A stretch of DNA of 64,000 nt from Atribacterota bacterium (GCA_028717805.1 JAQUNC010000005.1:1238-65237); one strand, 5' to 3'; numbered from the stretch's first letter, positions 26,002 through 56,788 are shown. The notes: generated from the sequence alone by a model not told the origin. Translations and numbers: made by a program.

Positions 26002-27045
26002 ATGGTTGCAAATAAGAAAATGTATACCACTGACGAAATAAAGCATTATCAAGTTGAACCTGACCGAAGATTATTTTCTGCTAATCATGAAGAAATTGAA
26101 AGAGGATTAACTACTGATATTTATTTTATTAGAGCAATAGAGGTCCTTAATTTCTTGAAACTGGATGCTACAGAGGTTACTGCAGAAATATTTGCCAGGC
26201 GAGCAGGAATTTTTGCTGGTGTGCAGGAAGCATATAATTTGCTCAAAGATAAAAAGATCAAACTTTGGTCACTACAAGAAGGGAATTCATTTCAACCCAA
26301 AGAAACAGTAATGAGAATCCAGGGTCCCTATAATGAATTTGGAGTTTATGAAACAATAATATTAGGGATATTAGCCAGCAGTTCTGCCTGGGCAACTGCA
26401 GCACGGGAATGCTGTGAGGTCGCAAATGGTAAAAAAATTATCTGTTTTGGCTCGCGGCATATTCATCCAGCTGTTGCTCCTGTTATGGAAAGAGCAGCAC
26501 TTATTGGAGGAGTGGATGGAGCAAGTTGTGTACTGGGAGCAAAATTGATGGGGCAAGAACCCCAAGGTACTATTCCACATACTGTAATAATAATTACCGG
26601 GGATACAGTGAAAGCAGCAAAAGCTTATCATGAGTGTTTTTCTCCGGATATACCCAGAGTAATTTTGATAGATACCTTCAAAGATGAGGCTGAAGAATCA
26701 ATTAGGGTTGCTAATGCTTTGGGCAAGAGCCTTCTGGGTGTCCGTCTTGACACTCCAAGTGAAAGAGGAGGGGTATCCCCTGATTTGGTTAAAGAGGTAC
26801 GAGCACGATTAGATCAGGCAGGATATGCTCATGTTAAGATTTTTGTTTCAGGAGGAGTAACACCAGAGAGAATTGTTTTATTAAGCAAGGAAGCTGTTGA
26901 TGCCTTTGGAGTGGGTAGTTACATTAGCGATGCCTCACCCATTGATATGACTCTTGATATTAAGGAAGTTGAAGGGAAGCCTATTGCCAAAAGAGGGCGG
27001 ATACCTGGTAAAATTGAAAACAAGAATTTAGTTCAATTAATTTAG
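26002..27045 (+). CDS. Nicotinate phosphoribosyltransferase, archaeal-type (class II short form)
   Basis: 347 aa. The stretches I remember as conserved in Thermoplasma/Pyrococcus-type NAPRTases are present (DIYFIRA, GTIPHTVIIITGD, VSGGVT, GKPIAKRG). Confidence 0.75.
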   Translation: MVANKKMYTTDEIKHYQVEPDRRLFSANHEEIERGLTTDIYFIRAIEVLNFLKLDATEVTAEIFARRAGIFAGVQEAYNLLKDKKIKLWSLQEGNSFQPKETVMRIQGPYNEFGVYETIILGILASSSAWATAARECCEVANGKKIICFGSRHIHPAVAPVMERAALIGGVDGASCVLGAKLMGQEPQGTIPHTVIIITGDTVKAAKAYHECFSPDIPRVILIDTFKDEAEESIRVANALGKSLLGVRLDTPSERGGVSPDLVKEVRARLDQAGYAHVKIFVSGGVTPERIVLLSKEAVDAFGVGSYISDASPIDMTLDIKEVEGKPIAKRGRIPGKIENKNLVQLI

Positions 27046-27305
27046 ATATAGTAGTAAGCGTTAGCAGTAATGTTATCAGTTTTTAGTTTTTTGTTTTTGT
27101 CTAAAACTTAAATTACCAAAATAGTTTTATATTTATTTTATTATATTTAAGAATAAATTAGTATTATTACAATTAATATTTGTTTTTAGATTAAACAATG
27201 AGTAAGTTGTTTAATTAATGCCAAGCCAATTTTTAATTAGAATAAATTCAATAAATATCTATTCAACTATTAACTAAAAACTGTAAACCAAAAAATTCTT
27301 TTATT

Positions 27306-27393
27306 GCCGGGATGGCGGAATAGGTAGACGCGCCAGCTTGAGGGGCTGGTAGGCATATTGCTTGTGGGGGTTCAAATCCCCCTCCCGGCACCA
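27306..27393 (+). tRNA. tRNA-Leu (anticodon GAG)
   Basis: GCCGGGA-TG-GCGGAATAGGTAGACGC, anticodon stem-loop CCAGC-TTGAGGG-GCTGG, long variable arm, T-arm GGGGGTTCAAATCCCCC, CCA encoded. Confidence 0.8.
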
Positions 27394-27836
27394 TAGATTC
27401 TATTTTAAGAGAAATTAAAATTTTATTTATAATGATAGTTAGGAAGGGGACATTGGTGCCCTTTTTATTTTTTGTTTTACTATTTAAAGATTAAGATAGA
27501 TAAGGTCAAAATTTTTACTGGAAGGAAGTAAGAAGAAAGAGAAAATAATGACTGAAGAGATGCGGTATAAGATAGACAGAAATCAAGAGAAAAAGAGAAT
27601 AAAAAATTTTGCTAAAGAAATTGCATCATCCAGTAAAAATGTGCTATACTTTTGCCAGTGTTTTGTAAAATAGAAATGAATCTTAAATTTGTAAGAAAGA
27701 TATATTTTGGTAAGTTCTTTAACAAATCTATTTTGGTAATAAAAAATAGCAAAACAACAATAAATCAAAGATTTTATTGATAAACCTTACCCATTATAGT
27801 CAATCAATAAATACAGACCTATAGCGAGGTGATGTA

Positions 27837-28346
27837 ATGATAAGTTTTATTATCACTTTTATTTTGAGTTTTTTCGCTTATCTATTTTTAACTGCCAGTC
27901 AAGGAGAAGTTTTAGGATTATGGAGTCAAAATGAAATAATAGCCGCCCTAATTGTTGGTCTCATTGTAACTATTATCTCTGCCAGAGTATTATTTCAGAA
28001 AAAACGTTACCACCTTTTAAACCCATTAAAATGGGTTATTTTTTTGTTTTATCTGGTTGGCCCCTTTTTTTATGCTATGGCCAAAGCAAATATTGATGTT
28101 GCTTACCGCGTAATTACAGGTAAAATCAACCCGGGAATTGTAAAAATATCACCCAAATTAAAGAGCGATGCTGCCATAACCTTACTGGCAAACTCTATTA
28201 CCCTTACTCCTGGAACACTAAGTGTGGATATAGATGAAAAGAATAATGATCTTTATATCCATTGGATTAATGTTACTAATTTGAAACCTTCTATTGAAGA
28301 TATTTGTGGTACTTTTTCCGAATGGGCGAGGAGGATAGCAGAATGA
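27837..28346 (+). CDS. Mbh/Mrp-type membrane subunit, MrpE/MnhE-like (MbhA)
   Basis: 169 aa with 2-3 TM helices and MnhE-like architecture. First gene of the 14-gene Mbh cluster. Confidence 0.7.
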
Positions 28347-28618
28347 CTCAATTATTGAACTATTTTTTAATTACAGGAGTATTATTAACAGTATTTATTC
28401 TAATATCTCTGTTTCGTTTGATTTCCGGTCCCACTGTACCTGATCGTGTTGTAGCTATGGATACCATTAATACTTTAATTGTAGCAGGAATGATTCTCTT
28501 TGGTGCAGCCTTTGAAGAAATTATTTATATCGATGTGGCAATAGTATATGCCTTATTATCATATATTGCTACTCTGTATATTGCTAAATATCTTGAGAGG
28601 AGGGCAAAAGATAAGTGA
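28304..28618 (+). CDS. MrpF/MnhF-like subunit (MbhB)
   Basis: The probable start at 28343 ([15 protein letters not shown]) overlaps the previous stop in an ATGA. Small 3-TM protein. Confidence 0.75.
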
Positions 28619-28977
28619 CCATTTTATCGATTATTTTATTTTTATTTTTATTAATAGGAATATTTTTCAATGGATTGGGATCCATTGGTTTAATGAGATT
28701 TCCTGATGTTTACACCAGATTGCATGCTGCTACAAAATGCACTACGTTTGGTTCTATATTCACATCATTGTCTGTTATCATTTTTGGTTTTTATTTTTGG
28801 AAAGCCAACGGTGATTCTAAATTCGGAGTTCTGGCATTGCATACCATCATAGCTTTGGTTTGTTTGATTATAACCAATCCTACTGGAGCTCATGCTATTG
28901 CTCGGGCAGCTTACCGCAGTGGAGTGATGCCTAAACAGGCAGTGATTGATCAATTAAAGGAGGCAAAGCTGAAATGA
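28615..28977 (+). CDS. MrpG/MnhG-like subunit (MbhC)
   Basis: MnhG signature region GLMRFPDVYTRLHAATK. Confidence 0.8.
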   Translation: MTILSIILFLFLLIGIFFNGLGSIGLMRFPDVYTRLHAATKCTTFGSIFTSLSVIIFGFYFWKANGDSKFGVLALHTIIALVCLIITNPTGAHAIARAAYRSGVMPKQAVIDQLKEAKLK

Positions 28978-29216
28978 GCCCATTAGTAAGTATTGCTCAT
29001 ATTGCTGTACTGGTTGTTATGATTATTGCATCAATTTTAGCTGTAGTACTAAGGGATTTATTACCTTCAGTTATTGCCCTGGCTGCAGCCAGTTTACTTT
29101 TGTCCTTAGAATTTTATCTTCTGCATGCTCCTGATGTAGCAATAGCAGAAGCAGGAATTGGGGCAGCTTTGACTATGGCAATTTATATTTTTGCCATCAG
29201 GGCAACGAAGAAGTAA
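28974..29216 (+). CDS. MnhB N-terminal-domain-like small membrane protein (DUF4040; MbhD)
   Basis: 80 aa with 2 TM helices, in the expected position of MbhD. Confidence 0.6.
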   Translation: MSPLVSIAHIAVLVVMIIASILAVVLRDLLPSVIALAAASLLLSLEFYLLHAPDVAIAEAGIGAALTMAIYIFAIRATKK

Positions 29217-29227
29217 GAGGTGAGATT

Positions 29228-29494
29228 ATGAAAAAATCAATATTTGGTATTGCTTTTATATTATTTGTAGCTTTTATGATTCTAGCTGCCTTTGGTATGA
29301 GACCTTTTGGGGAGCCAGCTTTTAGTGAAATGGATGACTATTATATAGAAAATGCTCAGGCTGAAACAGGAGCTAATAATGTAGTAACTACCATAGTTTT
29401 TGATTACCGTGGTTTTGATACCCTGGGAGAAGCAACTGTTTTATTTACTGCAGTGGTAGGTATTGTGGCATTATTTAGGGAGGTGGCAAAATGA
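29228..29494 (+). CDS. MnhB-related small membrane protein (MbhE)
   Basis: 88 aa with TM helices at both ends, in the expected position of MbhE. Confidence 0.6.
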   Translation: MKKSIFGIAFILFVAFMILAAFGMRPFGEPAFSEMDDYYIENAQAETGANNVVTTIVFDYRGFDTLGEATVLFTAVVGIVALFREVAK

Positions 29495-29970
29495 GAGAAG
29501 AAATGTCTCGTATTGTTAGAACCATAACTAATTTGATTTATGGTTTTATCGCTGTTTATGGATTTTATGTCATAATACATGGTCATCTCACTCCTGGAGG
29601 AGGTTTTCAGGGAGGAGCGATTGTAGCTTCAGCCTTTGCTTTATTGTTAGTAACTTATGGCAATAAAAATACTCAAAGCTTTTTAGCAAAAGATATTCTT
29701 TCTTTGCTGGAAAGCACCGGATTGGTTCTTTTTATTACATTTGCATTTTTTGGATTAGGTGCAACTTTTTTTTATAATTTTCTTTCCAACAGTGGCGGAT
29801 TATTCGGTTCACCAGCTACAATCGGTGTCAATCCAGGTGATCTAAATACAGGTGGTACTATAACGCTGATGAATATGGCAGTGGGTTTAGAAGTGCTGGC
29901 AGCATTAGGAGTAATTGTTCTTACCATGTCTGTTGCCGCTGAAACTATACAGAAGAAGGAGAAGCCGTGA
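29491..29970 (+). CDS. MrpB/MnhB-domain subunit (MbhF)
   Basis: GGGFQGGAIVASAFALL is a MnhB signature. Confidence 0.7.
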   Translation: MREEMSRIVRTITNLIYGFIAVYGFYVIIHGHLTPGGGFQGGAIVASAFALLLVTYGNKNTQSFLAKDILSLLESTGLVLFITFAFFGLGATFFYNFLSNSGGLFGSPATIGVNPGDLNTGGTITLMNMAVGLEVLAALGVIVLTMSVAAETIQKKEKP

Positions 29971-30319
29971 TATGATTGGAAATTTTCCCTTTGTTGCAGT
30001 GGTAATTTTGATTGGATTAGGAATCTATACCCTGATTTTTAAGAAAAATCTAATTAAGATTGCCATCGGAATAACACTAATTGAAAATGGTACCAATTTA
30101 TTTTTAATTACTTTAGGATACCGAAAGGGAGCCGTAGCGCCAATTTATACACAGGCGCCAGAAGGAGTCAAAATGGTTCTTCCTACACCTCAAGCTTTAA
30201 CCTTGACCAGTATTGTTATAGGAGTTGCTACAACTGCTTTGATTCTTTCTATTGCCATGATTCTTTACCAAAAATATGGTACATTAAATACAGATGAAAT
30301 AAGGAGGTTAAGAGGATGA
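29915..30319 (+). CDS. MrpC/NuoK-like subunit (MbhG)
   Basis: Probable start at 29972 (MIGNFPFVAVVILIGLGIY). 3-TM NuoK/MnhC family. Confidence 0.8.
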   Translation: MFLPCLLPLKLYRRRRSRDMIGNFPFVAVVILIGLGIYTLIFKKNLIKIAIGITLIENGTNLFLITLGYRKGAVAPIYTQAPEGVKMVLPTPQALTLTSIVIGVATTALILSIAMILYQKYGTLNTDEIRRLRG

Positions 30320-31884
30320 GCAGCATTTTGATGCATGCACCTGCTTTAGTAATTGCCTTGCCTCTATTAGCGGCTTTTATTACTCCTGTTATAGGTCGTT
30401 TTAATCGTAAAACAATAAGTTGGTTTGTATCCTTTATATTAGGACTAACGTTATTATTGATCATATTCATAGCTAATCAGGTCTTAACTAATGGTGCTTT
30501 GATTTATGTTTTTGGAGGAAGTGAGGCAGGTTTAACATTACCATCTGGATATACAGTACCCATCAGAATCATTTTCCATATTGACGGAATGGGAATATTT
30601 ATGGGATTGATAACAGCCGTTGTCTCTTTTTTAGCTGCTATTTATTCAATTTCTTTTATGGAACAACATAGTGGATTAGAAAAGTATTACACACTGTTAC
30701 TCTTATTGGCAACCGGGATGTTTGGTATGGAATTAACTGGAGATATTTTCAACTTTTTTGTTTTTTTGGAGATCGCTTCTATTGCTTCAGTAGCGCTGAT
30801 TTCCTTTCGGAGTACTCTTGCAGGTGAACCTGCTGAGGCAGGATTTAAATATATGGTAGTTAGTTCCATATCTGCCTTAATGGTACTATTTGCTATTGGA
30901 TTATTTTATGGTCAATATGATGTTTTGAACATGGCGACTATTGCCAGTGTTATGCAATTTACCCAACTTGATAAAATAGCTTTAATACTTTTAGTATCTG
31001 TTTTGGCAATGAAGGCAGGTTCAGTGCCAATGCATATGTGGACACCAGATGCTTATTCGGAAGCCCCGGCAGCGATTACTATGGTTCTGGTTGCTGCCAG
31101 TCAAGCTAGCCTTTATGCTCTTTTTAGAATTACATTTTCTCTCTATAATGTCACTTTAAATACAGTAACAGTTGGCTGGATTATTATTATTCTGGGTATA
31201 CTTTCTATGTTTATCGGTGTTACTATGGCTATTATTCAGAAGGATATTAAGCGTTTAATGGCTTATCACGCCATTTCTCAGACTGGTTATATGCTTTTAG
31301 GAGTGGGAGTAGGCCTGGCTGTTCTAGCAAATCCGGTAGCTTTAGAAAGTTTTGGAATAAAAGCAATGGAAGGTGGAATCTTTCATATTATGAACCATGC
31401 TATGTATAAAGGTTTATTATTTTTAACTGCTGGTGCCTTATTCTATAGGACAGGTACCAGAGATTTAAATAAGATGGGTGGTTTAGCTAATAACATGATG
31501 TATACTACTATCTTCTTTATAATCGGTGCAGCAGCTATTGCTGGAATACCACCCTTTAATGGTTTTGCCTCCAAGTTAATTATCTATGAGTCAGTCTATC
31601 AATTTAATCCTTTATTATCAATTATTGCTATGCTGGTTAGTATTTTAACCCTGGCTTCTTTTGTGAAAGTATTTCATAGTGCCTTTTTAGGTCCTAAACT
31701 GGAAAAATATAAGTCAGTACAGGAAGTTCCTAAAAGTATGGTAGTGGCAATGGCTACCTTAGCCTGCATCATTGTATTTTTTGGATTATTTCCCGATCTC
31801 ATCGTTAAACATATTGTTCATCCTGCAGTGATGGCTTTGATTAATCAGGCTCACTATACCGCAACAATATTGGGAGGAATATAG
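30316..31884 (+). CDS. MrpD/NuoL/M/N-family antiporter-like subunit (MbhH)
   Basis: 522 aa with ~14 TM helices and the NADH-ubiquinone oxidoreductase chain 5/MrpD-like core. Confidence 0.88.
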   Translation: MSSILMHAPALVIALPLLAAFITPVIGRFNRKTISWFVSFILGLTLLLIIFIANQVLTNGALIYVFGGSEAGLTLPSGYTVPIRIIFHIDGMGIFMGLITAVVSFLAAIYSISFMEQHSGLEKYYTLLLLLATGMFGMELTGDIFNFFVFLEIASIASVALISFRSTLAGEPAEAGFKYMVVSSISALMVLFAIGLFYGQYDVLNMATIASVMQFTQLDKIALILLVSVLAMKAGSVPMHMWTPDAYSEAPAAITMVLVAASQASLYALFRITFSLYNVTLNTVTVGWIIIILGILSMFIGVTMAIIQKDIKRLMAYHAISQTGYMLLGVGVGLAVLANPVALESFGIKAMEGGIFHIMNHAMYKGLLFLTAGALFYRTGTRDLNKMGGLANNMMYTTIFFIIGAAAIAGIPPFNGFASKLIIYESVYQFNPLLSIIAMLVSILTLASFVKVFHSAFLGPKLEKYKSVQEVPKSMVVAMATLACIIVFFGLFPDLIVKHIVHPAVMALINQAHYTATILGGI

Positions 31885-31885
31885 T

Positions 31886-32227
31886 ATGAATATTGGTTTA
31901 TTAGAAACAGGAAGTGGTTACTGGAATGCGATAATATGGGTCTTAGTTACTATTATAGTTGGAATTGGTGTTTTATGGCTAAGGAATAAAGGTGAAGGAA
32001 ACTATAAAAAAGATACCAATCAAACAAAACCTTTCCTTTCTGGCAATCCAGAAGTAAGTAAAGAAGACTCTCATGTCGGAGCAAGCCATATCTACTGGGG
32101 ATTCACTGAGGCTTTAAAGAATTATTATGAGCCCCTGATTAAACTACATACCGGGGACATTAATGATTATAGTGGATGGATTGTTTTAGTAATGGCTATT
32201 ATATTTATTATAGTTGGGGTGAGTTAG
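31886..32227 (+). CDS. Small membrane subunit (MbhI-like)
   Basis: 113 aa with TM helices at the N- and C-termini, in the position and size of Pyrococcus MbhI. Confidence 0.55.
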   Translation: MNIGLLETGSGYWNAIIWVLVTIIVGIGVLWLRNKGEGNYKKDTNQTKPFLSGNPEVSKEDSHVGASHIYWGFTEALKNYYEPLIKLHTGDINDYSGWIVLVMAIIFIIVGVS

Positions 32228-32231
32228 CACA

Positions 32232-32702
32232 ATGAAATTAGATAAGTATTTAGATCGTTCTTTATGGGTATTTCATTTAAATACAGGTTCTTGTAATGGT
32301 TGTGATATTGAAATTGTGGCTTTATTAACACCAAGATATGATGTGGAAAGATTTGGTATAAAACTGGTGGGAAGCCCAAAGCATGCCGATGTACTATTAG
32401 TGACTGGTCCTGTCAATAGAAAGATGCTACCAAGGTTGAAACTGATATATGAACAGACTCCCGATCCCAAAGCTGTTATTGTAGTTGGCACCTGTGGTAC
32501 AAGTGGCGGTGTATTTTATGATTCTTATAATATAGTGGGACCAGTGGACAAGCACATTCCCGTGGATGTATATGTACCTGGATGTCCAATAAGGCCAGAA
32601 GCAATAATTAATGGAGTCTTGAAAGCCTGGTTAAAATTAGAGAGATTAAGAGGCTCCTCTGGTGCAGAGATTGAAAAGAAAATAGAAGAGGTTAGTGCTT
32701 AA
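32232..32702 (+). CDS. Group-4 [NiFe] hydrogenase small subunit (NuoB-like; MbhJ)
   Basis: NuoB/HycG family with Cys ligands (SCNGCD...GTCGTSGG...PGCP). Confidence 0.9.
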   Translation: MKLDKYLDRSLWVFHLNTGSCNGCDIEIVALLTPRYDVERFGIKLVGSPKHADVLLVTGPVNRKMLPRLKLIYEQTPDPKAVIVVGTCGTSGGVFYDSYNIVGPVDKHIPVDVYVPGCPIRPEAIINGVLKAWLKLERLRGSSGAEIEKKIEEVSA

Positions 32703-32730
32703 AATAAAATGAGAAGGTTCAGGTGATAAT

Positions 32731-33246
32731 ATGGAATATTATAATGCCCAAGAGTTATTATCATTTTTAGAAGAAAATTTGAAAGAAAACATTTTAGAAA
32801 TTCGCCTTGAATCCAGAAAGGCAGGAATCAAGCAGGAAGAGTTTCATAATATCTGGTTAGAGGTGAAAAGAGAAAAATTCAGGGGTACTGTGAAGCTATT
32901 AATGAGTTTACAATATCCTCACATTGCTATTATTTCCGGTCATGATACCGGCGAAACCATTGAACTGGTTTATCTTTTTTCCCTCTTTTATGGAGAGAAA
33001 TTTAAAGAAATTTCAATTAATGTCAAGGTGAGATTAGAGAGAAAGAATCCAGCTATCGAGAGTATAACTGATTTAATTCCTGGAGCTCAAACAACAGAAA
33101 GGGAAATTAAAGAGATGTTGGGAGTAGAATTCATAGGACTTCCGGATATGCGAAATATCTTTTTACCATACGATTTCCCTAAAAATGTTTTTCCCTTCCG
33201 AAAAGATCAAAAAGGCTTGGACGAACTCGTTCCAAAGGAAAGTTGA
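32731..33246 (+). CDS. NuoC-like 30-kDa subunit (MbhK)
   Basis: Complex I 30-kDa family fold, 171 aa. Confidence 0.8.
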   Translation: MEYYNAQELLSFLEENLKENILEIRLESRKAGIKQEEFHNIWLEVKREKFRGTVKLLMSLQYPHIAIISGHDTGETIELVYLFSLFYGEKFKEISINVKVRLERKNPAIESITDLIPGAQTTEREIKEMLGVEFIGLPDMRNIFLPYDFPKNVFPFRKDQKGLDELVPKES

Positions 33247-33257
33247 GGTGATTATAG

Positions 33258-34481
33258 TTGAGTAAATCTACTTATAAGGTACCCATCGGGCCTATTCATC
33301 CGTCATTGGAAGAACCAATGACCTTCAATTTTGAGATATCCGGCGAAAGAATTCAGTCGGTAGATTTAGCACCGGGTGATAATCATCGGGGTATCGAATT
33401 TATGGGAAGAAATAGAAATATTATTCAAATAATATATCTGGCAGAAAGAATTTGCGGGATATGTTCAGCTTCTCATCCCTTTGCTTTTTGTCGTGCCGTT
33501 GAAAACGCTGCTGGTATAGAGGTGCCGCCCAGAGCAGAATATATTAGAGTTATTATTTCTGAGTTAGAAAGAATTCATTCTCATATTCTCTGGGCAGGAG
33601 TAGCCGCACATGAGTTAGGTTTTGATTCAGTCTTATTCCTTTCCTGGAAAGTGAGAGAAGAGGTAATGGATCTATTGGAAATGCTTACTGGTAACCGGGT
33701 AAATTATGGGATGTTTATGATTGGTGGAGTTAGAAGGGACATTACGGAGCAACAAATTCCTTGGATTAGAAAAACTTTACAATATTATAAGGATGTTTAT
33801 CAGAAACTAGAAGATGTTTTTCTCAAAGATCCCAGTATTGCCTTAAGGACTAAGAATGTTGGTATTTTAACCTATGAGGAAGCACTCAATTTAGCCAGTG
33901 TTGGTCCTACAACCAGAGCTTCAGGAGTAAAAAAAGATATCAGACAGGATCAGCCATATTCGGCTTATGCTGATTTTGATGTTCAAGCTATCACACCGGA
34001 TAGTTATTCTGGTGAAGTAAATGGCGATGTTTTTGATCGTATTATTGTTCGAATATTGGAGGTTTTTCAGTCTGTCCAGATTATAGAATATTGTATCAAC
34101 AACTTACCTGATGGAGAAATATTATCAGAGCCAAAAATTGCCAAGTTATTAGGTGTTTTGAAAAAAGTGAAGGGAGAAGGTGTGGGCAGACATGAAGCTC
34201 CACGTGGTGAAGTTATTCACTATGTAAAATTAAATGAATCGGAAAATCCAGAGGTGTGGAAAGCAAGAGCACCGACTTATAATAATCTAATGTCCTGGAT
34301 GCCAATGTTACAGAGGCAGGAAGTAGCAGATATTCCTATTGTAATAGCTTCCATTGATCCCTGCATTGGTTGTATGGATAGAGTAACACTGGTTGATTCT
34401 AATACCTATAAAAAACAGGTGTTAACTAGAGAAGAATTAAGAAAGTTAAGTATCGAAAAAACCAGGAGGATGTTAAGATGA
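33258..34481 (+). CDS. Group-4 membrane-bound [NiFe] hydrogenase large subunit (NuoD-like; MbhL)
   Basis: N-terminal Ni-Fe ligand motif RICGICSASH and C-terminal DPCIGCMDR, followed by a ~30-aa cleavable extension. Confidence 0.9.
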   Translation: MSKSTYKVPIGPIHPSLEEPMTFNFEISGERIQSVDLAPGDNHRGIEFMGRNRNIIQIIYLAERICGICSASHPFAFCRAVENAAGIEVPPRAEYIRVIISELERIHSHILWAGVAAHELGFDSVLFLSWKVREEVMDLLEMLTGNRVNYGMFMIGGVRRDITEQQIPWIRKTLQYYKDVYQKLEDVFLKDPSIALRTKNVGILTYEEALNLASVGPTTRASGVKKDIRQDQPYSAYADFDVQAITPDSYSGEVNGDVFDRIIVRILEVFQSVQIIEYCINNLPDGEILSEPKIAKLLGVLKKVKGEGVGRHEAPRGEVIHYVKLNESENPEVWKARAPTYNNLMSWMPMLQRQEVADIPIVIASIDPCIGCMDRVTLVDSNTYKKQVLTREELRKLSIEKTRRMLR

Positions 34482-35485
34482 GTGGGAGCAGTATTTTAAT
34501 CTTTATTCTCAAAATTGTTAGCGCTCTAATAATTGCTGTAATTGGTATATTGGTAGGTTTATTCTATAAAGGCATTGATCGTAAATTAGCTGCTATGATG
34601 CAATCCCGGGTAGGACCTCCGGTTAGACAGCCTTTTCTTGATTTTTTTAAGCTAATGATAAAGGAAAATATCGTTCCCGAAAATGCTATTCCCTGGATTT
34701 TTAATGGTGCACCAATGCTAGCTCTGGTTTCCACAATTACCATTTTATTTTATATTCCTTATGGTTCGCTACCAGCATTGTTTGGAAATTCTGGTGATTT
34801 GATATTAATTGCCTATCTGCTGGCTATACCAGCAATTGCCCTGGTAGCTGGTGGTTTTTCTTCAGGATCTACTTATGCCAGTATTGGAGCACAAAGAGAG
34901 ATGGTTTTGATGATGAGTTATGAACTCCCTCTGGTTACTACCATTGTTGCTTTAGGGTGGAGATTAAATTTGGCCTACCCCGGATTAAAGGTTTTTTCCT
35001 TAGCAGTTTTAAGTGCTAATCCTATCTGGAGTTTAGTTGGCCCGCTGGGTTTTATTGGCGCCATATTGTTGCTCTTTACCTTAGCTATTGTAACTCCAGC
35101 AGAGTTATCCATTGTTCCTTTTGATATTCCTGAAGCAGAAACCGAACTGGCAGGAGGCATCTTGGTGGAGTATTCTGGTCGAAATTTAGCCTTATTTGAA
35201 CTGGCTAATGCAGTAAAAATGATAGTAATGGGAGCCTTGACTGTTGTTTTATTTTTCCCATATAATATTGCCCATTTATTTTCATTAAATGGCTTCTTTG
35301 CCTATATTGTCGATACGTTATTCTTTTTCTTTAAATTATTCATTGTCATATTCTTTGAAGCAACCTTTATTAGAGTTGCTATAGCACGTTTAAAAATTGA
35401 TCAAGCTTCAGTTGCTTATTTAGTATTTCTTTCTATAGTTGGTTTGATGGGTTTATTATTGATAGCTATTGATTATATTATCTAA
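34478..35485 (+). CDS. NuoH-like membrane subunit (MbhM)
   Basis: 335 aa with 8 TM helices; NuoH/HycD/EchB family. Confidence 0.85.
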   Translation: MSGSSILIFILKIVSALIIAVIGILVGLFYKGIDRKLAAMMQSRVGPPVRQPFLDFFKLMIKENIVPENAIPWIFNGAPMLALVSTITILFYIPYGSLPALFGNSGDLILIAYLLAIPAIALVAGGFSSGSTYASIGAQREMVLMMSYELPLVTTIVALGWRLNLAYPGLKVFSLAVLSANPIWSLVGPLGFIGAILLLFTLAIVTPAELSIVPFDIPEAETELAGGILVEYSGRNLALFELANAVKMIVMGALTVVLFFPYNIAHLFSLNGFFAYIVDTLFFFFKLFIVIFFEATFIRVAIARLKIDQASVAYLVFLSIVGLMGLLLIAIDYII

Positions 35486-35568
35486 TATCGAAATTTCTTT
35501 GAAGTTTTGATATTGCTAAAGATAATTTATTTACATAATCTATATAGAAGAAGTGTTCAGATATTCCT

Positions 35569-35597
35569 AAGGGGAAGAATTCCCTAGGGATATCCTG
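35569..35597 (+). repeat. GC-rich hairpin element, copy C (AAGGGGAAGAATTCCCTAGGGATATCCTG)
   Basis: AGGGGAA...TTCCCT inverted repeat with the shared 3' GATATCCTG tail. It sits inside the 217-nt gap between mbhM and mbhN. Confidence 0.4.
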
Positions 35598-35702
35598 ATT
35601 ATAAAATAAAAGAAATTTTTTTAAAATGTATTTACTTTAAGGGATTTTAAGGCCTATCTACCCTGATTAACAGGCAATATAGATGAAATGAGGTGATAAA
35701 GA

Positions 35703-36110
35703 ATGCCGACACCAATAGTGTTTGAGTTAATCAAACAACTTTTTCATAGACCTGCAACGAACTGTTTCCCGGTGAAATATTATCCCAGCCAAACAACTGT
35801 TACTGATCTTATTAAAAAAGTCCAGGATGGCCAGGTGAAGATAAACTCACCGGTAACGGTACCGGAGAAATTTAGAGGGAAAATAGTCTATGATAGGGAA
35901 AAATGTATCGGATGTCGCTTATGTGTTAGGGTATGTCCTTCCCGAGCGATTGAATTTCTTCCGGAAGAAAAAAAGATTAAAATCAGAATTGACCGCTGTA
36001 TATTTTGTGCACAGTGTAATGATGTTTGTCCGGTCAATTGTCTGAGTATGTCTGAAAACTTTCTTTTAGCAAATGAAGATCGTTTTGATTCAGAGATGAT
36101 TGTCCAATAA
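35703..36110 (+). CDS. NuoI-like 2x[4Fe-4S] ferredoxin subunit (MbhN)
   Basis: Two CxxCxxCxxxCP motifs (CIGCRLCVRVCP; CIFCAQCNDVCP). Confidence 0.88.
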   Translation: MPTPIVFELIKQLFHRPATNCFPVKYYPSQTTVTDLIKKVQDGQVKINSPVTVPEKFRGKIVYDREKCIGCRLCVRVCPSRAIEFLPEEKKIKIRIDRCIFCAQCNDVCPVNCLSMSENFLLANEDRFDSEMIVQ

Positions 36111-36153
36111 TTTAAATTAAACAAGATAAGATGAAGTATAATGATTGTTTTAT

Positions 36154-36205
36154 AAAATACTAAGATGCTACATTTTTATGAAGTATCTTAGTATTTGATT
36201 TTTAT
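36154..36205. terminator. Bidirectional intrinsic terminator between convergent mbhN and hycI
   Basis: Perfect 12-bp inverted repeat AAATACTAAGAT / ATCTTAGTATTT flanking a ~17-nt loop, followed by GATTTTTAT. Confidence 0.55.
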
Positions 36206-36526
36206 ATAACCATTAGTAATATCTTGAAAGACTGTTTGATGGTTACATGAAACGACTTTACCACAAAGATTGATGTATACTAATTGACTATTTTCTACTC
36301 GAGGTTCAAAGTGGTAAGTTGTGTTACTGTTACTTAGATTGTTAAGATTAAATAAAATATTACATAAAAAAGAAAAGGGGAGAATAAAAAGTAATTTTAA
36401 AAAAGTTTAGTCTAGCATAAAAGTTCTTAAAGCTATCAGTGGTATAGGTATGTGTTTGCCTATACATTAAGTCAGTTTGAAATTTATAATTCTTTCTAGT
36501 CGATAGAAGAGTAAAAGGAGAAAGGA

Positions 36527-36973
36527 TTAGGTGAAAATTGGAATAGCTTTAAGCTGGTTCTTTTCCAATAAGTTTTTAAGCTGATAGCATGCCTTTAGCA
36601 CTGGTTTACTTAAATTTTCACTCATTTCAGTTGAAAGAGGTTGAATACCGATAAGTATGATTTTATGGCAATCAGGAGTCAAGTATTCTATGAGATAGGA
36701 CAGAGACAGGTAATGAGTGGAAAGTTGCAGGGAAACAATTTTTTCTACGGGGATTACCCTAATACTACCTGCAATAAGATTCATTTCAACAGCATCGATA
36801 ATTACCAACAGTTCAGGATGAATATTTTTAATAACTGAAGTGTAGTTTTCTGGAGCCGATTTTCCGTCTATCACCATCCAGTTATGATGCTTGAAATGCT
36901 GGGCAATAAAAGAACCAGCACCATCATCAGACCTTAGGGAATTACCTATCCCTAGGAGACAATTTTTGGACAT
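36527..36973 (-). CDS. hycI: Hydrogenase maturation endopeptidase (HycI/HybD family)
   Basis: LLGIGNSLRSDDGAGSFIAQHF...LLVIIDAVEMN are the HycI/HyaD Ni-dependent protease motifs. Confidence 0.82.
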   Translation of the reverse strand: MSKNCLLGIGNSLRSDDGAGSFIAQHFKHHNWMVIDGKSAPENYTSVIKNIHPELLVIIDAVEMNLIAGSIRVIPVEKIVSLQLSTHYLSLSYLIEYLTPDCHKIILIGIQPLSTEMSENLSKPVLKACYQLKNLLEKNQLKAIPIFT

Positions 36974-37430: not shown

Positions 37431-37458
37431 TAGGGGGGAATATCCCCTGACTATTTTG
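37431..37458 (+). repeat. GC-rich hairpin element, copy D (TAGGGGGGAATATCCCCTGACTATTTTG)
   Basis: GGGGGAATATCCCC hairpin with a TGAC tail, 21 nt upstream of the SPOR gene. Confidence 0.4.
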
Positions 37459-38226: not shown

Positions 38227-38820
38227 TTGTCAATTTATCATAGAACCTTAGCATCTTTGATTGAAGCAAAGAGAGTTAATGAATTTTCTACAATTTCCTC
38301 GTCCAGACTGTCAGATATAACCGGCATTAATCCCCATCAGATTAGAAAAGACCTTTCTTATTTTGGTGAATTTGGGAAAAGGGGAATTGGCTATCCTGTC
38401 CTGGAATTATTCACTAAATTAAAGGAGATATTGAAATCAAATCAAAAATGGAATTTAGTACTCGCTGGTGCTGGTAATTTAGGGACTGCCTTCCTTTGTT
38501 ATAAAGGATTCCTCAAAAGAGGCTTTATCATAAAAGCAGTATTTGATAATGATATGGCTAAAGTAGGTAAAAAAATTGGCAATATCAGGATCAGACATAT
38601 CCAGGACATGGAAAAATTTCTAAAAGAGCAGAAAATACGAATTGGTATTATTGCAGTACCTTCCCAATCGGCTCAAGAAGTAGCTGACCAGATGATTGCT
38701 GGAGGAGTCAGGTCAATACTTAATTTTGCTCCTATTAGTATAAAACATCCCCGGAAAATATCAATTAAACATATTGATATTGCTATTGAACTTGAAAAGC
38801 TGGTCTATTACTTATCTTAA
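38227..38820 (+). CDS. rex: Redox-sensing transcriptional repressor Rex (true N-terminus lies upstream of the annotated TTG)
   Basis: Full-length similarity to Bacillus Rex (GAGNLGTAFLCY Rossmann motif, SILNFAP). The conserved IPQATIDRL N-terminal helix is encoded in frame upstream of 38227, and no canonical start codon is available there. Confidence 0.9.
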   Translation: MSIYHRTLASLIEAKRVNEFSTISSSRLSDITGINPHQIRKDLSYFGEFGKRGIGYPVLELFTKLKEILKSNQKWNLVLAGAGNLGTAFLCYKGFLKRGFIIKAVFDNDMAKVGKKIGNIRIRHIQDMEKFLKEQKIRIGIIAVPSQSAQEVADQMIAGGVRSILNFAPISIKHPRKISIKHIDIAIELEKLVYYLS

Positions 38821-51876: not shown

Positions 51877-54192
51877 ATGAAAATAAGATACAAGCTTACT
51901 ATATATGGTATTGTTCAGGGAGTAGGTTTTCGTCCCTTTATTCATAAATTGGTAAAAAAATATAATTTATATGGATGGATTTGTAACTCCAACCAGGGAG
52001 TAGAAATGGAAATTGAAGGGGAGGACTCCGATGGTAGGGAATTTTTAAAAGAATTAAAAAATCATCTCCCTCCCTTAGCTCTTATTGATGATATCAGAAT
52101 TAAAAGGTTATCCTGTATTGGATATTCCAAATTTGCCATAAAGAAGAGCAAATCCAACCATAGACATCCTGTTATTCTTATGCCCCCCGATATTTCCATT
52201 TGTGAGGATTGTAAAACAGAACTGAATGATCCTTCTAACCGACGTTATCATTACCCTTTTATTAATTGTACCAATTGTGGCCCTCGTTTTACTATTATTG
52301 AAGACATGCCTTATGATAGGGATAAGACTACTATGAAAAAATTTGTTATGTGTACTGATTGTTTTAATGAATATCATGATTTAGAAAACCGTCGCTATCA
52401 TGCTCAACCTAATGCTTGTCCAGTTTGTGGCCCACAAGTTTCTCTTTATACAGGTAACCAGAAAGTTGTTACGCAGGACCCTATCCAGGAGGCGCAAAAG
52501 AGATTGAGAGGAGGAGAGGTGGGTGTAATAAAAGGATTAGGAGGGTTTCATCTGAGCTGTGATGCTCAGAATAAGGAAGCCGTATCCAGAATTAGAGAAA
52601 TAAAGAAAAGAGACCAAAAACCTTTTGCTTTGATGGCTGAAAGTATATCAAAAATAACAAATTTCTGTTATGTATCTGTGCTGGCTCGGAAATATTTAGA
52701 GAGCAAGGAGAAGCCCATCGTACTTTTAAAAAAGAAAAGAATTTGCCATTTATCACCAGCTATTGCTCCTGGTAATGCCTATCTTGGCTTTATGTTACCT
52801 TATACCCCCTTACATATTTTATTATTACAAAAGAGTAACCTGGTCCTGGTTATGACCAGTGCTAATTTCAGCGATGAACCAATTATCATTCAAAATGAAG
52901 AAGCATTTCAGAAATTGGCACAGCAGGTTGACTTTTTACTTCTCCATAATCGACAGATTTACAATCGCTGTGATGATTCTGTTTTAAAGATAACTGCTCA
53001 TCATTCTATCTTTATTAGAAGGTCAAGAGGTTATGCCCCATTTCCCATTGTGCTCCCGGAGGAGGCTAAATCTATACTGGCCTTAGGTCCAGAAGAAAAG
53101 AATACAGTATGTCTTACTCGTGATCGTTATGCCTTTCCCAGTCAGCATCTGGGTGATTTGAAAAACAGGGATAGCTTCCAGGCCTATCAGGAAGCCATCA
53201 AACGTCTAATTCGGGTATTTCAATTTAAACCAAAGGTTATTGCCTGTGATTTACATCCTGATTATCTTTCTACTCATTATGCTGAGGAATTATCCCGGCA
53301 ATTCAGAGTGCCCTTGTTGAAGATTCAACACCATCATGCCCATATTGCCAGCTGTATAGCTGAAAACTATATATCTGAAAAGGTGATTGGAGTTGCCTTT
53401 GACGGTACCGGTTTTGGTCTGGACGGTGCTATCTGGGGAGGTGAATTCCTGGTAGTTTCACCGAAGGATTGCTTGAGAGTGGGTCATTTAAAATATGTAG
53501 CTATGCCCGGGGGAGAACAAGCTATACATCAACCCTGGAGGATGGCTTTTAGTTATCTTTACTCCCTTTCCGGACAAGAGGCTGATTCTATTCGATCGGT
53601 ATTAGGGGAAGGAAGAGAGAAAAAAGATTTTCAGTTACTGAAACAGATGATAGATAAAAGGATTAATTCACCTCTTACCTCCAGCTGCGGCAGATTGTTT
53701 GATGCAGTTGCTTCTCTAATTGGACTAAGAGATGGGGTGGCTTTTGAAGGACAAGCTGCTATGGAGCTGGAAGCTTTATGTCAGACTAAATATAAGGATA
53801 ATTATAATTATCAAATTACTAGAGAAATTAACGGCTTGGTGGTAGATACTGGAGAAATGTTTCTACAGATAATTAATGATTTAGAAAGGAAAATTCCTTT
53901 ACCCAGAATTGCCACTCAGTTCCATAACACAGTTGCTGATATTATTCTTTCCTTATGTGTTAAAATAAAAAAGGAATTTAATATCAATTATGTTGCTTTA
54001 AGCGGAGGAGTTTTTCAAAATAGCTTTCTTTTAGCTCAAACTATGAAAAAATTAAAAAAGGAAAACTTTACAGTCTTAATACATAAAAAATTACCGCCTA
54101 ACGATGGCTGTATTGCCCTGGGACAGGCGGTAGTTACTGATGCGCGTATCAAGTCTGGTAAAATTATATGTGGTTTTTACAAATGTAAATGA
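51877..54192 (+). CDS. hypF: [NiFe] hydrogenase maturation carbamoyltransferase HypF
   Basis: Acylphosphatase domain, two Zn-finger pairs (CEDCKTE...CTNCGPRF; CTDCFNE...CPVCGP), a YrdC domain and a Kae1-like domain; 771 aa. Confidence 0.95.
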   Translation: MKIRYKLTIYGIVQGVGFRPFIHKLVKKYNLYGWICNSNQGVEMEIEGEDSDGREFLKELKNHLPPLALIDDIRIKRLSCIGYSKFAIKKSKSNHRHPVILMPPDISICEDCKTELNDPSNRRYHYPFINCTNCGPRFTIIEDMPYDRDKTTMKKFVMCTDCFNEYHDLENRRYHAQPNACPVCGPQVSLYTGNQKVVTQDPIQEAQKRLRGGEVGVIKGLGGFHLSCDAQNKEAVSRIREIKKRDQKPFALMAESISKITNFCYVSVLARKYLESKEKPIVLLKKKRICHLSPAIAPGNAYLGFMLPYTPLHILLLQKSNLVLVMTSANFSDEPIIIQNEEAFQKLAQQVDFLLLHNRQIYNRCDDSVLKITAHHSIFIRRSRGYAPFPIVLPEEAKSILALGPEEKNTVCLTRDRYAFPSQHLGDLKNRDSFQAYQEAIKRLIRVFQFKPKVIACDLHPDYLSTHYAEELSRQFRVPLLKIQHHHAHIASCIAENYISEKVIGVAFDGTGFGLDGAIWGGEFLVVSPKDCLRVGHLKYVAMPGGEQAIHQPWRMAFSYLYSLSGQEADSIRSVLGEGREKKDFQLLKQMIDKRINSPLTSSCGRLFDAVASLIGLRDGVAFEGQAAMELEALCQTKYKDNYNYQITREINGLVVDTGEMFLQIINDLERKIPLPRIATQFHNTVADIILSLCVKIKKEFNINYVALSGGVFQNSFLLAQTMKKLKKENFTVLIHKKLPPNDGCIALGQAVVTDARIKSGKIICGFYKCK

Positions 54193-54222: not shown

Positions 54223-54438
54223 ATGTGTCTGGCTATCCCTGGTAAGATAATAAAAAAAATAAATTGTGAAGAGGCAGAGGTTCTGTTGGGGAATATAAAA
54301 AAGTCGGTTAGAATTGACCTTTTACCTGAAATTGAAGAAGGAGATTATGTGCTTATTCATGCTGGATATGCCATTACTAAAATCGATTCCCGGGAGGCAA
54401 ATGAGATAAATCAAGCCTGGGAGGAAATACAGTCTTGA
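54223..54438 (+). CDS. hypC: Hydrogenase maturation factor HypC
   Basis: Starts MCLAIP, which is the diagnostic HypC N-terminus; 71 aa. Confidence 0.88.
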   Translation: MCLAIPGKIIKKINCEEAEVLLGNIKKSVRIDLLPEIEEGDYVLIHAGYAITKIDSREANEINQAWEEIQS

Positions 54439-55517
54439 AGTATTTCGATGAATATAGGGATAAAAGGCTTTGCCAATCAATAATAGAAAGAATCAAGGAA
54501 CTGACAACAGAAGAAATTAATATAATGGAAGTTTGCGGAACTCATACTATGTCCATTTTTCGTTCTGGCATAAAAGACCTTTTGCCGGAAAATATTCATT
54601 TAATTTCAGGTCCTGGTTGTCCGGTATGTGTTACTCCCATATCCGATATCAATCATATAATTGCTCTGGCTAGAATGGATCGAGCAATAATAGCAACTTT
54701 TGGAGATATGATAAATGTACCTGGTAGTTCTTCTAGCTTGAAGAGGGAAAAAGCAGATGGGGCTGATGTCAGAGTGATTTATTCACCACTCCAAGCACTG
54801 GAAATTGCCCAGGAATTTCCACAGAAACAGATTATTCTGGTTGGGATTGGATTTGAGACAACCATACCTTTGCTAGCCAGTGTTGTTCTAGAAGCAAAAA
54901 AGAAAGCAATTACTAATTTTTATCTCCTAAGTCTAACCAAGCTCATGCCTCCTATTATAAGGGCACTTTTACAGAGTCAGGAGGTAACAATTGATGGGAT
55001 GCTCTGTCCCGGTCATGTCAGCACTATTATTGGGACTAAACCCTATCAATTTATTCCGGACTGTTACCATATTGCCTGTGTAATTGCCGGCTTTGAACCA
55101 ATCGATATTTTAATAGCAATCTATCATCTCATCCTGCAGAAGATTAAAGGTGAGCCGCAGGTAGAAAATAAATACCGGAGAGCGGTGAGGGAAGAAGGCA
55201 ATCTGGTTGCCCTTAATTTAATAACTCAGATTTTTTCTACTGTCGATAGTGAATGGAGAGGCATAGGAATAGTAGCTGACAGCGGTTTAGATTTAAAATC
55301 CGAATATTCTGATCTAAATGCCCGTAATTTTATAGTTAAAGTAGAAACAACCAAGGAAAATAATCAATGTAGATGTGGAGATGTCTTGAGAGGTGTAGTT
55401 ACACCCTTACAATGCCCACTTTTCCAGAAATTATGTACACCTGAGAATCCGGTGGGTGCCTGTATGGTCTCCAGTGAGGGAGTTTGTGCAGCATACTACA
55501 AATATAGTTCAGTATAA
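54435..55517 (+). CDS. hypD: Hydrogenase maturation factor HypD
   Basis: CGTHT, GPGCPVCV and the C-terminal CxxHx motifs. Confidence 0.93.
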   Translation: MKYFDEYRDKRLCQSIIERIKELTTEEINIMEVCGTHTMSIFRSGIKDLLPENIHLISGPGCPVCVTPISDINHIIALARMDRAIIATFGDMINVPGSSSSLKREKADGADVRVIYSPLQALEIAQEFPQKQIILVGIGFETTIPLLASVVLEAKKKAITNFYLLSLTKLMPPIIRALLQSQEVTIDGMLCPGHVSTIIGTKPYQFIPDCYHIACVIAGFEPIDILIAIYHLILQKIKGEPQVENKYRRAVREEGNLVALNLITQIFSTVDSEWRGIGIVADSGLDLKSEYSDLNARNFIVKVETTKENNQCRCGDVLRGVVTPLQCPLFQKLCTPENPVGACMVSSEGVCAAYYKYSSV

Positions 55518-55777: not shown

Positions 55778-56788
55778 ATGACCGACCAAATAATAACTAT
55801 AGATTATGGTAGTGGAGGTAAATTAACTAACCAGTTAATTCGCTCTCTATTTTTAAAATATTTTAATAATCCGATCTTAAATAAACTGCACGATGGAGCA
55901 GTTTTACCACCAACCAATCATAGAATTGCCTTTTCTACAGACTCTTACACTGTGAGCCCCATATTTTTTAAAGGTGGGAATATCGGACATCTAGCAATAA
56001 ATGGGACCATAAATGATATAGCCATGTGTGGAGCTATCCCAAAATACCTCAGTGTATCTTTAATTATTGAAGAAGGTACTTCAATGCAAATACTGGAACA
56101 AATAACCTGTAGCATGGCTGAAGCAGCAAATAAAACAGGCATTCAGATAGTTACCGGAGATACCAAGGTTGTCAATAAAGGAGATGTTGATGGTATATTT
56201 ATAAATACCACAGGAATAGGTTATATTGATTCAGGTGTTCACATTCATCCTGGGAGAGCACAGATTAATGATGCAATTATTATCAATGGACCTATCGGAA
56301 ATCATGGTATTAGCATTCTATCTTCTCGAGAAAACCTTCAGCTTGAAGAGAGTGTCCTAAGCGACACAGCCCCCCTGGCTGATTTAGTACAAGAGATGCT
56401 CTCTATAACCAAAGAAATTCATGTATTACGTGACCCTACCAGAGGTGGACTGGCTACTGCTTTAAATGAAATTGCCCAATCTTCTCAGGTAGAAATAGAA
56501 ATTGAAGAAGAAAATATTCCCATTGAGGAAACTGTAAAAGATGCCTGTAAAATTCTGGGTTACGATCCTCTTTATTTAGCCAATGAGGGAAAGTTAATTG
56601 CCTTTTTGCCGGAGCAATTTGCCGAAGAAGTAGTACAAAAGATGAAAACCAGCAGGTATGGAAAGCAAGCGGCTACTATTGGCAGAGTAATTACTCAGGG
56701 AAGATCAGAAGTGTCTCTAAAAACTGATATTGGTGGAAGAAGAATAGTGGGAATGCTTAGTGGAGAGCAACTCCCCAGAATATGTTAA
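55778..56788 (+). CDS. hypE: Hydrogenase maturation carbamoyl dehydratase HypE
   Basis: AIR-synthase-like fold with the C-terminal PRIC motif. Confidence 0.93.
   Translation: MTDQIITIDYGSGGKLTNQLIRSLFLKYFNNPILNKLHDGAVLPPTNHRIAFSTDSYTVSPIFFKGGNIGHLAINGTINDIAMCGAIPKYLSVSLIIEEGTSMQILEQITCSMAEAANKTGIQIVTGDTKVVNKGDVDGIFINTTGIGYIDSGVHIHPGRAQINDAIIINGPIGNHGISILSSRENLQLEESVLSDTAPLADLVQEMLSITKEIHVLRDPTRGGLATALNEIAQSSQVEIEIEEENIPIEETVKDACKILGYDPLYLANEGKLIAFLPEQFAEEVVQKMKTSRYGKQAATIGRVITQGRSEVSLKTDIGGRRIVGMLSGEQLPRIC

Follow-up and report, generated by a model that had tools for sequence, protein, structure and literature searches.

The 64-kb stretch of an Atribacterota genome analyzed here (contig JAQUNC010000005.1; hereafter the window, 64,000 nucleotides in full) raises the question of what is encoded by a run of 14 genes near its middle and how its bacterial host came to possess them. 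An earlier reading of these genes, made from the sequence alone, had taken them for a complete, energy-converting [NiFe] hydrogenase cluster in the archaeal gene order of Pyrococcus furiosus mbhA-N, and had attributed them to horizontal transfer. The analysis described below indicates, with a probability of roughly 0.9, that the region is the mbhA-N operon of JS1-type Atribacterota, predicted to encode a 14-subunit Mbh-type respiratory [NiFe] hydrogenase and to have been vertically inherited.

Positions 27837-36110 on the plus strand contain 14 co-directional open reading frames (ORFs), with the same bounds as in the sequence-only reading. Eight of the mbh junctions (A/B, B/C, C/D, E/F, F/G, G/H, H/I, and L/M) overlap by 4 bases or abut, a pattern typical of a single translationally coupled operon, while mbhN is preceded by its own GAGGTG ribosome-binding site. 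The ATG starts of mbhB (28343) and mbhG (29972) were preferred over longer TTG ORFs because they overlap or abut the preceding stop codon and because alignments with the P. furiosus chains begin there. In the order of the genes, Pfam assigns mbhA-G to MNHE (MrpE), MrpF, PhaG/MnhG (MrpG), MbhD, MbhE, MnhB, and Oxidored_q2 (NuoK/MrpC), and mbhH-N to Proton_antipo_M (522 amino acids), a 113-amino acid protein (MbhI) without a Pfam match, NuoB, NuoC, NuoD together with a NiFeSe_Hases N-terminus, NuoH, and a protein with two [4Fe-4S] domains. Each of the 14 ORFs matches the chain of the same letter (A-N) in the cryo-electron microscopy structure of the P. furiosus membrane-bound hydrogenase (MBH; 6CFW), so that the completeness and order of the cluster were confirmed by the ORF list, Pfam, NCBIfam, and the 6CFW chains (Table 1). 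The accompanying description of MrpB as split into three genes held for MbhF, which is MrpB-like, and failed for MbhD and MbhE, which are counterparts of the C-terminal region of MrpA (6Z16_A residues 650-813).

Assignment of the cluster to the hydrogenases depends above all on its large subunit. In a PDB search, MbhL scored 404 bits against P. furiosus MbhL, 272 bits against Escherichia coli HycE, and 139 bits against MbsL of the P. furiosus membrane-bound sulfane reductase (MBS; 6U8Y_L). The cysteine motifs quoted in the earlier reading were both found, RICGICSASH (residue 64) and DPCIGCMDR (residue 367), providing the Ni-Fe ligands C66/C69 and C369/C372, and these four cysteines are invariant among 83 aligned homologues. 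Alignment also revealed that MbhL retains Glu19, the proton donor (Glu21 in P. furiosus), and His73 (roles from PMC8679088). Residues C21, C24, C88, and C118 of MbhJ, the ligands of the proximal [4Fe-4S] cluster, align to 6CFW_J, and the ORF translation of MbhN contains two CxxCxxCxxxCP motifs, CIGCRLCVRVCP and CIFCAQCNDVCP.

The maturation genes identified are consistent with this assignment. A cleavable tail on the large subunit had been predicted, and DPCIGCMDR is indeed followed by 32 C-terminal residues that are HycE-like and can be aligned with the tail of HycE as far as residue 403, which fits processing by the adjacent HycI. The endopeptidase gene, correctly recognized at the outset as convergent and immediately downstream, is identified by Pfam and by TIGR00142, an equivalog that it barely passes (120.6 bits vs. 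a cutoff of 119.1), and in almost every Atribacterota locus it faces mbhN in convergent orientation. Genes for HypF, HypC, HypD, and HypE lie ~16 kb downstream of mbh, HypC having been identified from a 71-amino acid ORF starting MCLAIPGK. In a neighbor-joining tree, MbhL falls on the MbhL side of the HycE root. Judged against three references only, HycE of E. coli and both MbhL and MbsL of P. furiosus, the cluster is, by its sequence, an Mbh-type hydrogenase, Mrp-linked and probably of the kind filed by HydDB as group 4d. The original preference for such an enzyme over an Mbx/Mbs-type complex or a bare Mrp antiporter is thus supported by the cysteine ligands, the Fe-S motifs, the tail, HycI, and the Hyp proteins; neither an Mbx/Mbs affinity of MbhL nor the loss of a Ni-binding cysteine was found.

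The membrane module can be compared with the archaeal enzyme residue by residue, using roles assigned to the ion path of P. furiosus MBH (PMC8679088) and mapped here by alignment to the 6CFW chains. The Na+ "N-site" proposed for P. furiosus MbhB, made up of Asp35, Asn38, and Thr39 (PMC8679088), has its equivalents in Asp40, Asn43, and Thr44 of the present MbhB; MbhC retains the KCTTFG and TNP motifs; and MbhD Glu59 and MbhM Glu149 are the equivalents of P. furiosus Glu69 and Glu141. Six of the seven charged residues of the P. furiosus MbhH proton path are also kept, as Glu152, Lys233, His357, His361, Lys365, and Lys420 (P. furiosus Glu143, Lys225, His346, His350, Lys354, and Lys409). The seventh, Lys256 in transmembrane helix 8 (TM8), which has been proposed as the central proton carrier of P. 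furiosus MbhH (PMC8679088), is replaced by Ser262 (window ~31099-31101). Column counts showed Ser or Thr at this TM8 position in all 42 other sampled MbhH homologues from outside the Thermococcales. In MbhG, Glu38 and Asn42 (window ~30083-30097) replace P. furiosus Asp37 and His41, a Glu/Asn pair that is the state of P. furiosus MbsG.

Some of these observations, together with others from the locus, weigh against the reading preferred here. The TM8 segment that carries Ser262 has no titratable residue, and this replacement and the MbhG Glu38/Asn42 pair imply that the details of ion translocation may differ from the archaeal model. No hypA gene was detected by tblastn of the whole 64-kb window (E-value limit of 10) and no hypB among the window ORFs of at least 100 amino acids scanned with Pfam, so that Ni insertion must be encoded elsewhere. 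Finally, a 217-bp spacer separates mbhM from mbhN. A stronger claim, that the Mbh clade of Atribacterota, Thermotogae, Bipolaricaulota, and Thermoplasmata, which has Ser/Thr in place of the TM8 lysine and the Mbs-like Glu/Asn pair in MbhG, moves ions by another route or with another stoichiometry than P. furiosus, e.g., Na+ only, with no MbhH proton pump, is doubtful. If true, it would bear on how subsurface syntrophs gain energy close to the thermodynamic limit. The clade-wide substitutions in ion-translocating subunits, the sole part of the analysis with potential for novelty, merit the attention of those who model MBH.

The analysis establishes which genes are present and in what order, together with their ligand residues, homologies, synteny, and composition, while the electron donor, the direction of catalysis, and the ion specificity are deduced from homology with P. 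furiosus MBH. On that model, reduced ferredoxin derived from fermentation would deliver electrons to the two [4Fe-4S] clusters of MbhN, from which they would be relayed by the MbhJ [4Fe-4S] cluster to the Ni-Fe site of MbhL and there convert 2H+ to H2. The free energy released would be transmitted via MbhM, including Glu149, and MbhI to the Mrp-like module MbhA-H, where H+ and/or Na+ would be translocated and energy conserved. Maturation of MbhL would require HypF/C/D/E, followed by cleavage of the 32-residue tail by HycI.

Other accounts of what the complex does must be weighed against this one. The enzyme might operate in a formate hydrogenlyase (FHL)-like manner, in which formate imported by FocA is oxidized by the nearby formate dehydrogenase (Fdh) and feeds Mbh, as in the Fdh-Mfh-Mnh system of Thermococcus onnurineus. 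Formate has been proposed as a donor (Lee et al., PMC6281690), genes for NuoE, a NuoF-GltD fusion, FdhA, FocA, MobA, and FdhD are found 6-15 kb downstream, and the first genes of that block, encoding DRTGG and CBS/HATPase regulators, remain in synteny with mbh across the Atribacterota. Nevertheless, the Fdh genes form an operon of their own, marked by a conserved Rex box, and specify a soluble, NuoEF-linked (bifurcating) type of enzyme (PMC6776118), the mbh operon includes no partner of the HycB/FdhF type, and MbhL is much nearer to the ferredoxin-dependent MbhL than to HycE. Any link would be indirect, via ferredoxin, and the FHL-like arrangement is considered unlikely. The complex might instead work in the direction of H2 uptake, with an ion gradient driving the reduction of ferredoxin by H2, in the manner of the Ech and Eha enzymes of methanogens. 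In principle, group 4 hydrogenases can run both ways, and the sequence does not fix the direction. However, members of JS1 have been interpreted as fermenters or syntrophs that have to shed reduced ferredoxin (PMC6776118), and the neighboring genes (Fdh, FocA, and Rex) serve reductant disposal, all of which makes uptake quite unlikely. It is scarcely credible that the cluster encodes an Mbx/Mbs sulfur reductase, a complex I-like NADH dehydrogenase, or an Mrp antiporter devoid of hydrogenase activity. These systems have a modular architecture in common with Mbh, and MbhG, as well as MbhE and MbhF jointly, score somewhat better against Mbs than against MBH chains, but the four Ni-Fe cysteines, the HycE-type tail, HycI, and the Hyp genes are all present, MbhL scores 139 bits to MbsL as against 404 to MbhL, and there is one antiporter-like large subunit, as in MBH, where Mbs has two (6U8Y_H and 6U8Y_X). 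Complex I (Nuo/Ndh) was ruled out by an MbhL score below every NuoD equivalog cutoff in NCBIfam (289 bits vs. 360), the Ni-Fe cysteines, and the single antiporter-like subunit in place of NuoL/M/N. A stand-alone Mrp antiporter was ruled out as well, there being no MrpA N-terminal antiporter domain and the NuoB/C/D/H/I-like genes being translationally coupled in the same operon.

The second part of the question, the origin of the operon, was approached through a genome scan limited to one genome per species, in which at least 545 representatives encode relatives and 80 loci were compared by tblastn using all of the window genes. One locus, L001 (contig CAYSRG010000005.1 of a metagenome-assembled genome labeled "uncultured Atribacterota"), shares 99% identity in MbhL and 97.7% in DNA over mbhA-M, and over 30 other loci from Atribacterota show identities of 73-90%. 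All 14 mbh genes occur in order in 23 Atribacterota loci (species representatives), 12 of which preserve both flanks, GAPDH-TPI-SecG-NAPRT upstream and hycI (minus strand)-SPOR-rex-DRTGG-CBS/HATPase downstream, and 20 of which have rex downstream. The context shared by most of them is GAPDH-TPI-SecG-NAPRT-tRNA-Leu(GAG)-(hypA)-mbhA-N-hycI-SPOR-rex, hypA being variable, and the divergence of the flanking housekeeping proteins is about that of the Mbh subunits. When the neighbor-joining tree is rooted on HycE, the MbhL sequences of Atribacterota form a single clade in 100 of 100 bootstraps, and a clade of MbhL from Thermotogae, Bipolaricaulota, and Neomarinimicrobiota is recovered in 93 of 100. 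Because a sister grouping of Atribacterota with Thermotogae/Bipolaricaulota appears in only 32 of 100 bootstraps, no direction of ancient transfer can be claimed. The ordered 14-gene set was also found in bins labeled Thermotogae, Bipolaricaulota, and Thermoplasmata, and bins of Dehalococcoidales and Neomarinimicrobiota retain this order, except that one short subunit was not detected or the contig ends early; with at least 545 relatives and several phyla involved, the notion that the arrangement is restricted to a few anaerobic lineages was overstated.

These data speak directly to the alternative that the operon arrived recently, as a genomic island passed on horizontally by archaea. A tRNA gene lies directly upstream, the prototype of the gene order is archaeal (6CFW), and the phylum is not uniform, in that cultured Atribacter laminatus, of the OP9 class, is reported to rely on Rnf and to be devoid of NiFe hydrogenases (PMC7736352), whereas MbhA-N is found in JS1 lineages (PMC6776118). 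The proposed comparison with flanking genes gave no signal of transfer, however: GC content is 0.3614 for the mbh genes and 0.3615 for the other 44 genes of the window, GC content at third codon positions is 0.265 as compared with 0.283 ± 0.030, and the synonymous-codon distance of 0.035 is within the resampled null (0.041 ± 0.008). The 3' end of the tRNA gene is not duplicated, a search for att-like repeats having found no second copy elsewhere in the window, and the same tRNA gene precedes mbh in 14 of 15 Atribacterota loci tested. This gene and the flanks recur in both deep subclades, so it is a conserved upstream neighbor rather than an integration scar. Together with the monophyly of MbhL and the even divergence of the flanking genes, these results make a recent island very unlikely and largely refute it, and the horizontal transfer first proposed was not borne out as a recent or detectable event. 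To judge from synteny, composition, and phylogeny, the mbh operon is an old, vertically inherited core feature of this Atribacterota lineage with a fixed chromosomal context. If transfer occurred at all, it would date from before these Atribacterota radiated; such an ancient event may have brought the operon into the ancestor of JS1 or carried it out, and JS1 may have gained mbh at its base or OP9 may have lost it.

A few of the loci compared depart from this picture in gene content or labeling. L028 (QEXZ01000003.1), from a bin labeled Methanomicrobiales, contains Atribacterota-type mbhI-N and hycI with an MbhL that is 74% identical and nested in the Atribacterota clade, and this contig is probably mis-binned. 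In L034, from the Atribacteria single-cell amplified genome SCGC AAA255-G05, mbhL-M-N are followed by inverted mbhK-J-I-H, probably reflecting a chimeric single-cell assembly after multiple displacement amplification rather than a real rearrangement. The Thermoplasmata loci L037, L038, L042, L047-L054, and L056-L060, among others, have homologues of mbhJ-K-L-N only, side by side, and at the thresholds applied neither mbhM nor any homologue of the Mrp module was detected in their vicinity; they may represent a different, reduced architecture.

Expression of the operon probably begins in the region between the tRNA gene and mbhA. An alignment of 300 bp upstream of mbhA from 25 Atribacterota sequences contained a conserved GAGGTG ribosome-binding site and a sole conserved non-coding stretch, TTGCAT...TGnTATACT. 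In the window, this block consists of a -35 element, TTGCAT (27621-27626), an 18-nt spacer ending in TGc (an extended -10), and a -10 element, TATACT (27645-27650), and we infer that it is the mbh promoter, with a 5' leader of ~180 nt. A scan for consensus promoters and terminators performed no better than on shuffled sequences in this AT-rich DNA, and an Rfam scan of 27000-39100 yielded the tRNA only. By tblastn, hypA is located between tRNA-Leu(GAG) and mbhA in 19 Atribacterota loci (e.g., L009, 4089-4445), and in most relatives its 3' end directly precedes the promoter block; it was not found at the corresponding site of the window (27394-27836) or in L001, L004, L005, and L013.

Within the operon, the mbhM-mbhN spacer varies in length, being 214 bp in L001, 201 bp in L013, 520 bp in L003, and 12-20 bp in most other Atribacterota loci. 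It is 88.6% identical to that of L001, compared with 97.7% for coding DNA, and is therefore faster evolving. No Rfam match was obtained for it, and it is probably a neutral, lineage-specific insertion. The idea that it is a repeated or mobile element was rejected, no other copy being present in the window or in the 80 loci.

Downstream of mbh, the genes are arranged in the order hycI (minus strand), SPOR, rex, DRTGG, and CBS/HATPase. A perfect Rex palindrome, TTGTGATATTTTTCACAA, occupies 38957-38974 between rex and the DRTGG gene, adjoining a near-consensus promoter-like site (38914-38943), and the Rex box is kept at the same intergenic position in 18 Atribacterota loci. A search for Rex operators upstream of mbhA found none, the only perfect site being the one before the Fdh regulator operon, which suggests that Rex would govern the NADH-linked formate branch rather than the ferredoxin-linked Mbh. 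The block that follows (39074-51166) encodes DRTGG, CBS-HATPase, DRTGG, PHP, and HATPase regulators, followed by NuoE, a 1009-amino acid NuoF-GltD fusion, a 924-amino acid NuoG-like/molybdopterin FdhA, FocA, MobA, and FdhD. It is a putative counterpart of the electron-bifurcating formate dehydrogenase described for JS1 (Liu et al., PMC6776118). In the hycI-SPOR intergenic region (37245-37302), a block of ~55 bp (...GTTGCAGTAAAGCACAAAGGATTGTAATATTATATTATAATAAAG...) is 80-86% conserved in nine Atribacterota loci within surrounding DNA that cannot be aligned; it may serve hycI or SPOR/rex as a promoter or operator.

Table 1. Coordinates of the mbh operon and associated features in the window, with the supporting matches (E-values unless stated as bits).
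Feature	Position	Strand	Support
tRNA-Leu(GAG)	27306..27393	+	ARAGORN, Rfam
Candidate mbh promoter	27621..27650	+	Phylogenetic footprint
mbhA (MrpE-like)	27837..28346	+	Pfam MNHE 2.1e-36; 6CFW_A 5e-41; NCBIfam PRK08383 212 bits vs. cutoff 192
mbhB (MrpF-like)	28343..28618	+	Pfam MrpF; 6CFW_B 6.9e-23 to 1.8e-22
mbhC (MrpG-like)	28615..28977	+	Pfam PhaG_MnhG; 6CFW_C 9.2e-35 to 2.8e-34
mbhD (MrpA C-terminal-like)	28974..29216	+	Pfam MbhD; 6CFW_D 5.1e-18 to 8.5e-18; 6Z16_A residues 650-813
mbhE (MrpA C-terminal-like)	29228..29494	+	Pfam MbhE; 6CFW_E 1.5e-16
mbhF (MrpB-like)	29491..29970	+	Pfam MnhB; 6CFW_F 2.6e-26; NCBIfam PRK08386 165 bits vs. cutoff 92
mbhG (MrpC/NuoK-like)	29972..30319	+	Pfam Oxidored_q2; 6U8Y_G 3.6e-31; 6CFW_G 5.7e-24 to 1.5e-23
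mbhH (MrpD/NuoL-M-N-like antiporter subunit)	30316..31884	+	6CFW_H 4.9e-113 vs. 6U8Y_H 1.1e-52; NCBIfam PRK08376 733 bits vs. cutoff 662
mbhI (small membrane subunit joining two modules)	31886..32227	+	NCBIfam MbhI equivalog NF053600 122 bits vs. cutoff 95; 6CFW_I 2.1e-5
mbhJ (NuoB-like small subunit)	32232..32702	+	6CFW_J 6.4e-60 vs. 6U8Y_J 2.2e-33
mbhK (NuoC-like)	32731..33246	+	Pfam Complex1_30kDa; 6CFW_K 4e-20
mbhL ([NiFe] large subunit)	33258..34481	+	6CFW_L 4.8e-120 (404 bits)
mbhM (NuoH-like)	34478..35485	+	6CFW_M 3.1e-56, sole PDB match below 1e-25
AT-rich mbhM-mbhN spacer, 217 bp, two hairpins	35486..35702	+	Fold z-score -2.7
mbhN (NuoI-like 2x[4Fe-4S] subunit, presumed ferredoxin entry)	35703..36110	+	Pfam Fer4 families; 6CFW_N 3.3e-29; NCBIfam PRK08348 155 bits vs. 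cutoff 124
hycI (endopeptidase, predicted to cut MbhL tail)	36527..36973	-	Pfam HycI 4.8e-17; NCBIfam TIGR00142
rex	38227..38820		Precedes DRTGG gene at 39074
hypF (Fe(CN)2CO part of NiFe cofactor)	51877..54192	+	Pfam HypF domains
hypC (Fe(CN)2CO part of NiFe cofactor)	54223..54438	+	
hypD (Fe(CN)2CO part of NiFe cofactor)	54435..55517	+	Pfam HypD
hypE (Fe(CN)2CO part of NiFe cofactor)	55778..56788	+	Pfam AIRS/AIRS_C

In oil reservoirs and in methane-rich sediments below the seafloor, few bacteria are as abundant as JS1 Atribacterota. Mbh is their presumed route for shedding reduced ferredoxin as H2 while conserving some energy, a role that has been proposed since 2016 and that would feed syntrophic methanogens. 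MbhA-N has been described as the JS1 route from reduced ferredoxin to H2 (PMC6776118; PMC6281690; PMC10826368), so that its presence in JS1 Atribacterota is already known and the window adds another ortholog rather than a new idea. What the present analysis contributes is the lineage-wide conservation of the operon and its context, which argues against recent transfer, and the association of the Rex box with the Fdh operon and not with mbh.

Comparison with characterized and proposed systems places the complex more precisely. P. furiosus MBH (6CFW) has the same 14 subunits in the same order, an MbhL that is ~55-60% identical as estimated by eye, and in common with the complex described here the Ni-Fe cysteines, the cluster cysteines of MbhJ and MbhN, and most coupling residues, including those of the MbhB/C Na+ site. 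The present complex differs in its bacterial host, MbhH Ser262, MbhG Glu38/Asn42, the 32-amino acid HycE-like tail, the 217-bp spacer, and the adjacent convergent protease gene. The MbhA-N of JS1 "Atribacteria" (Lee et al., 2018, PMC6281690; Nobu et al., 2016, as cited in PMC6776118) is the same system, and the locus differs from other JS1 examples only at the level of sublineage, i.e., in having no upstream hypA and in its longer intergenic spacers. The Mbh of Thermotogae and Bipolaricaulota (Acetothermia) exhibits the same 14-gene order, 61-67% identity in MbhL, and the shared Ser/Thr in TM8 of MbhH and Glu/Asn in MbhG, but belongs to the separate clade recovered in 93 of 100 bootstraps, has Asp and Val/Ile where Atribacterota keep MbhH His361 and Lys365, and is flanked by other genes.

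More distant systems share parts of this architecture. The atribacterial "Hun" complex (Glass et al., bioRxiv 10.1101/536078) comes from the same phylum and is likewise a group 4 hydrogenase with Mrp-like subunits, but it is assigned to group 4g, has a CYCC L2 motif in HunG, and is accompanied by Asr-like HunABC, whereas the present MbhL has CIGC and the locus has no such partners. In the MbhL alignment of the 80 loci, ten relatives carry a CxCC form of the L2 motif, DPCMCC(M/L)DR, that recalls the CYCC of HunG. E. coli FHL (Hyc, PDB 7Z0S, group 4a) shares the NuoB/C/D/H/I-like core, the large-subunit tail (aligned to residue 403 of 407), and HycI processing, but has no Mrp module, is coupled to formate dehydrogenase through HycB, and is matched at 272 bits. 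P. furiosus MBS (6U8Y) has an Mrp-like module in common with Mbh, and MbhG is closest to MbsG, yet MbsL is matched at 139 bits, MbsJ aligns with a gap across the CxxC of MbhJ, and MBS contains two antiporter-like subunits.

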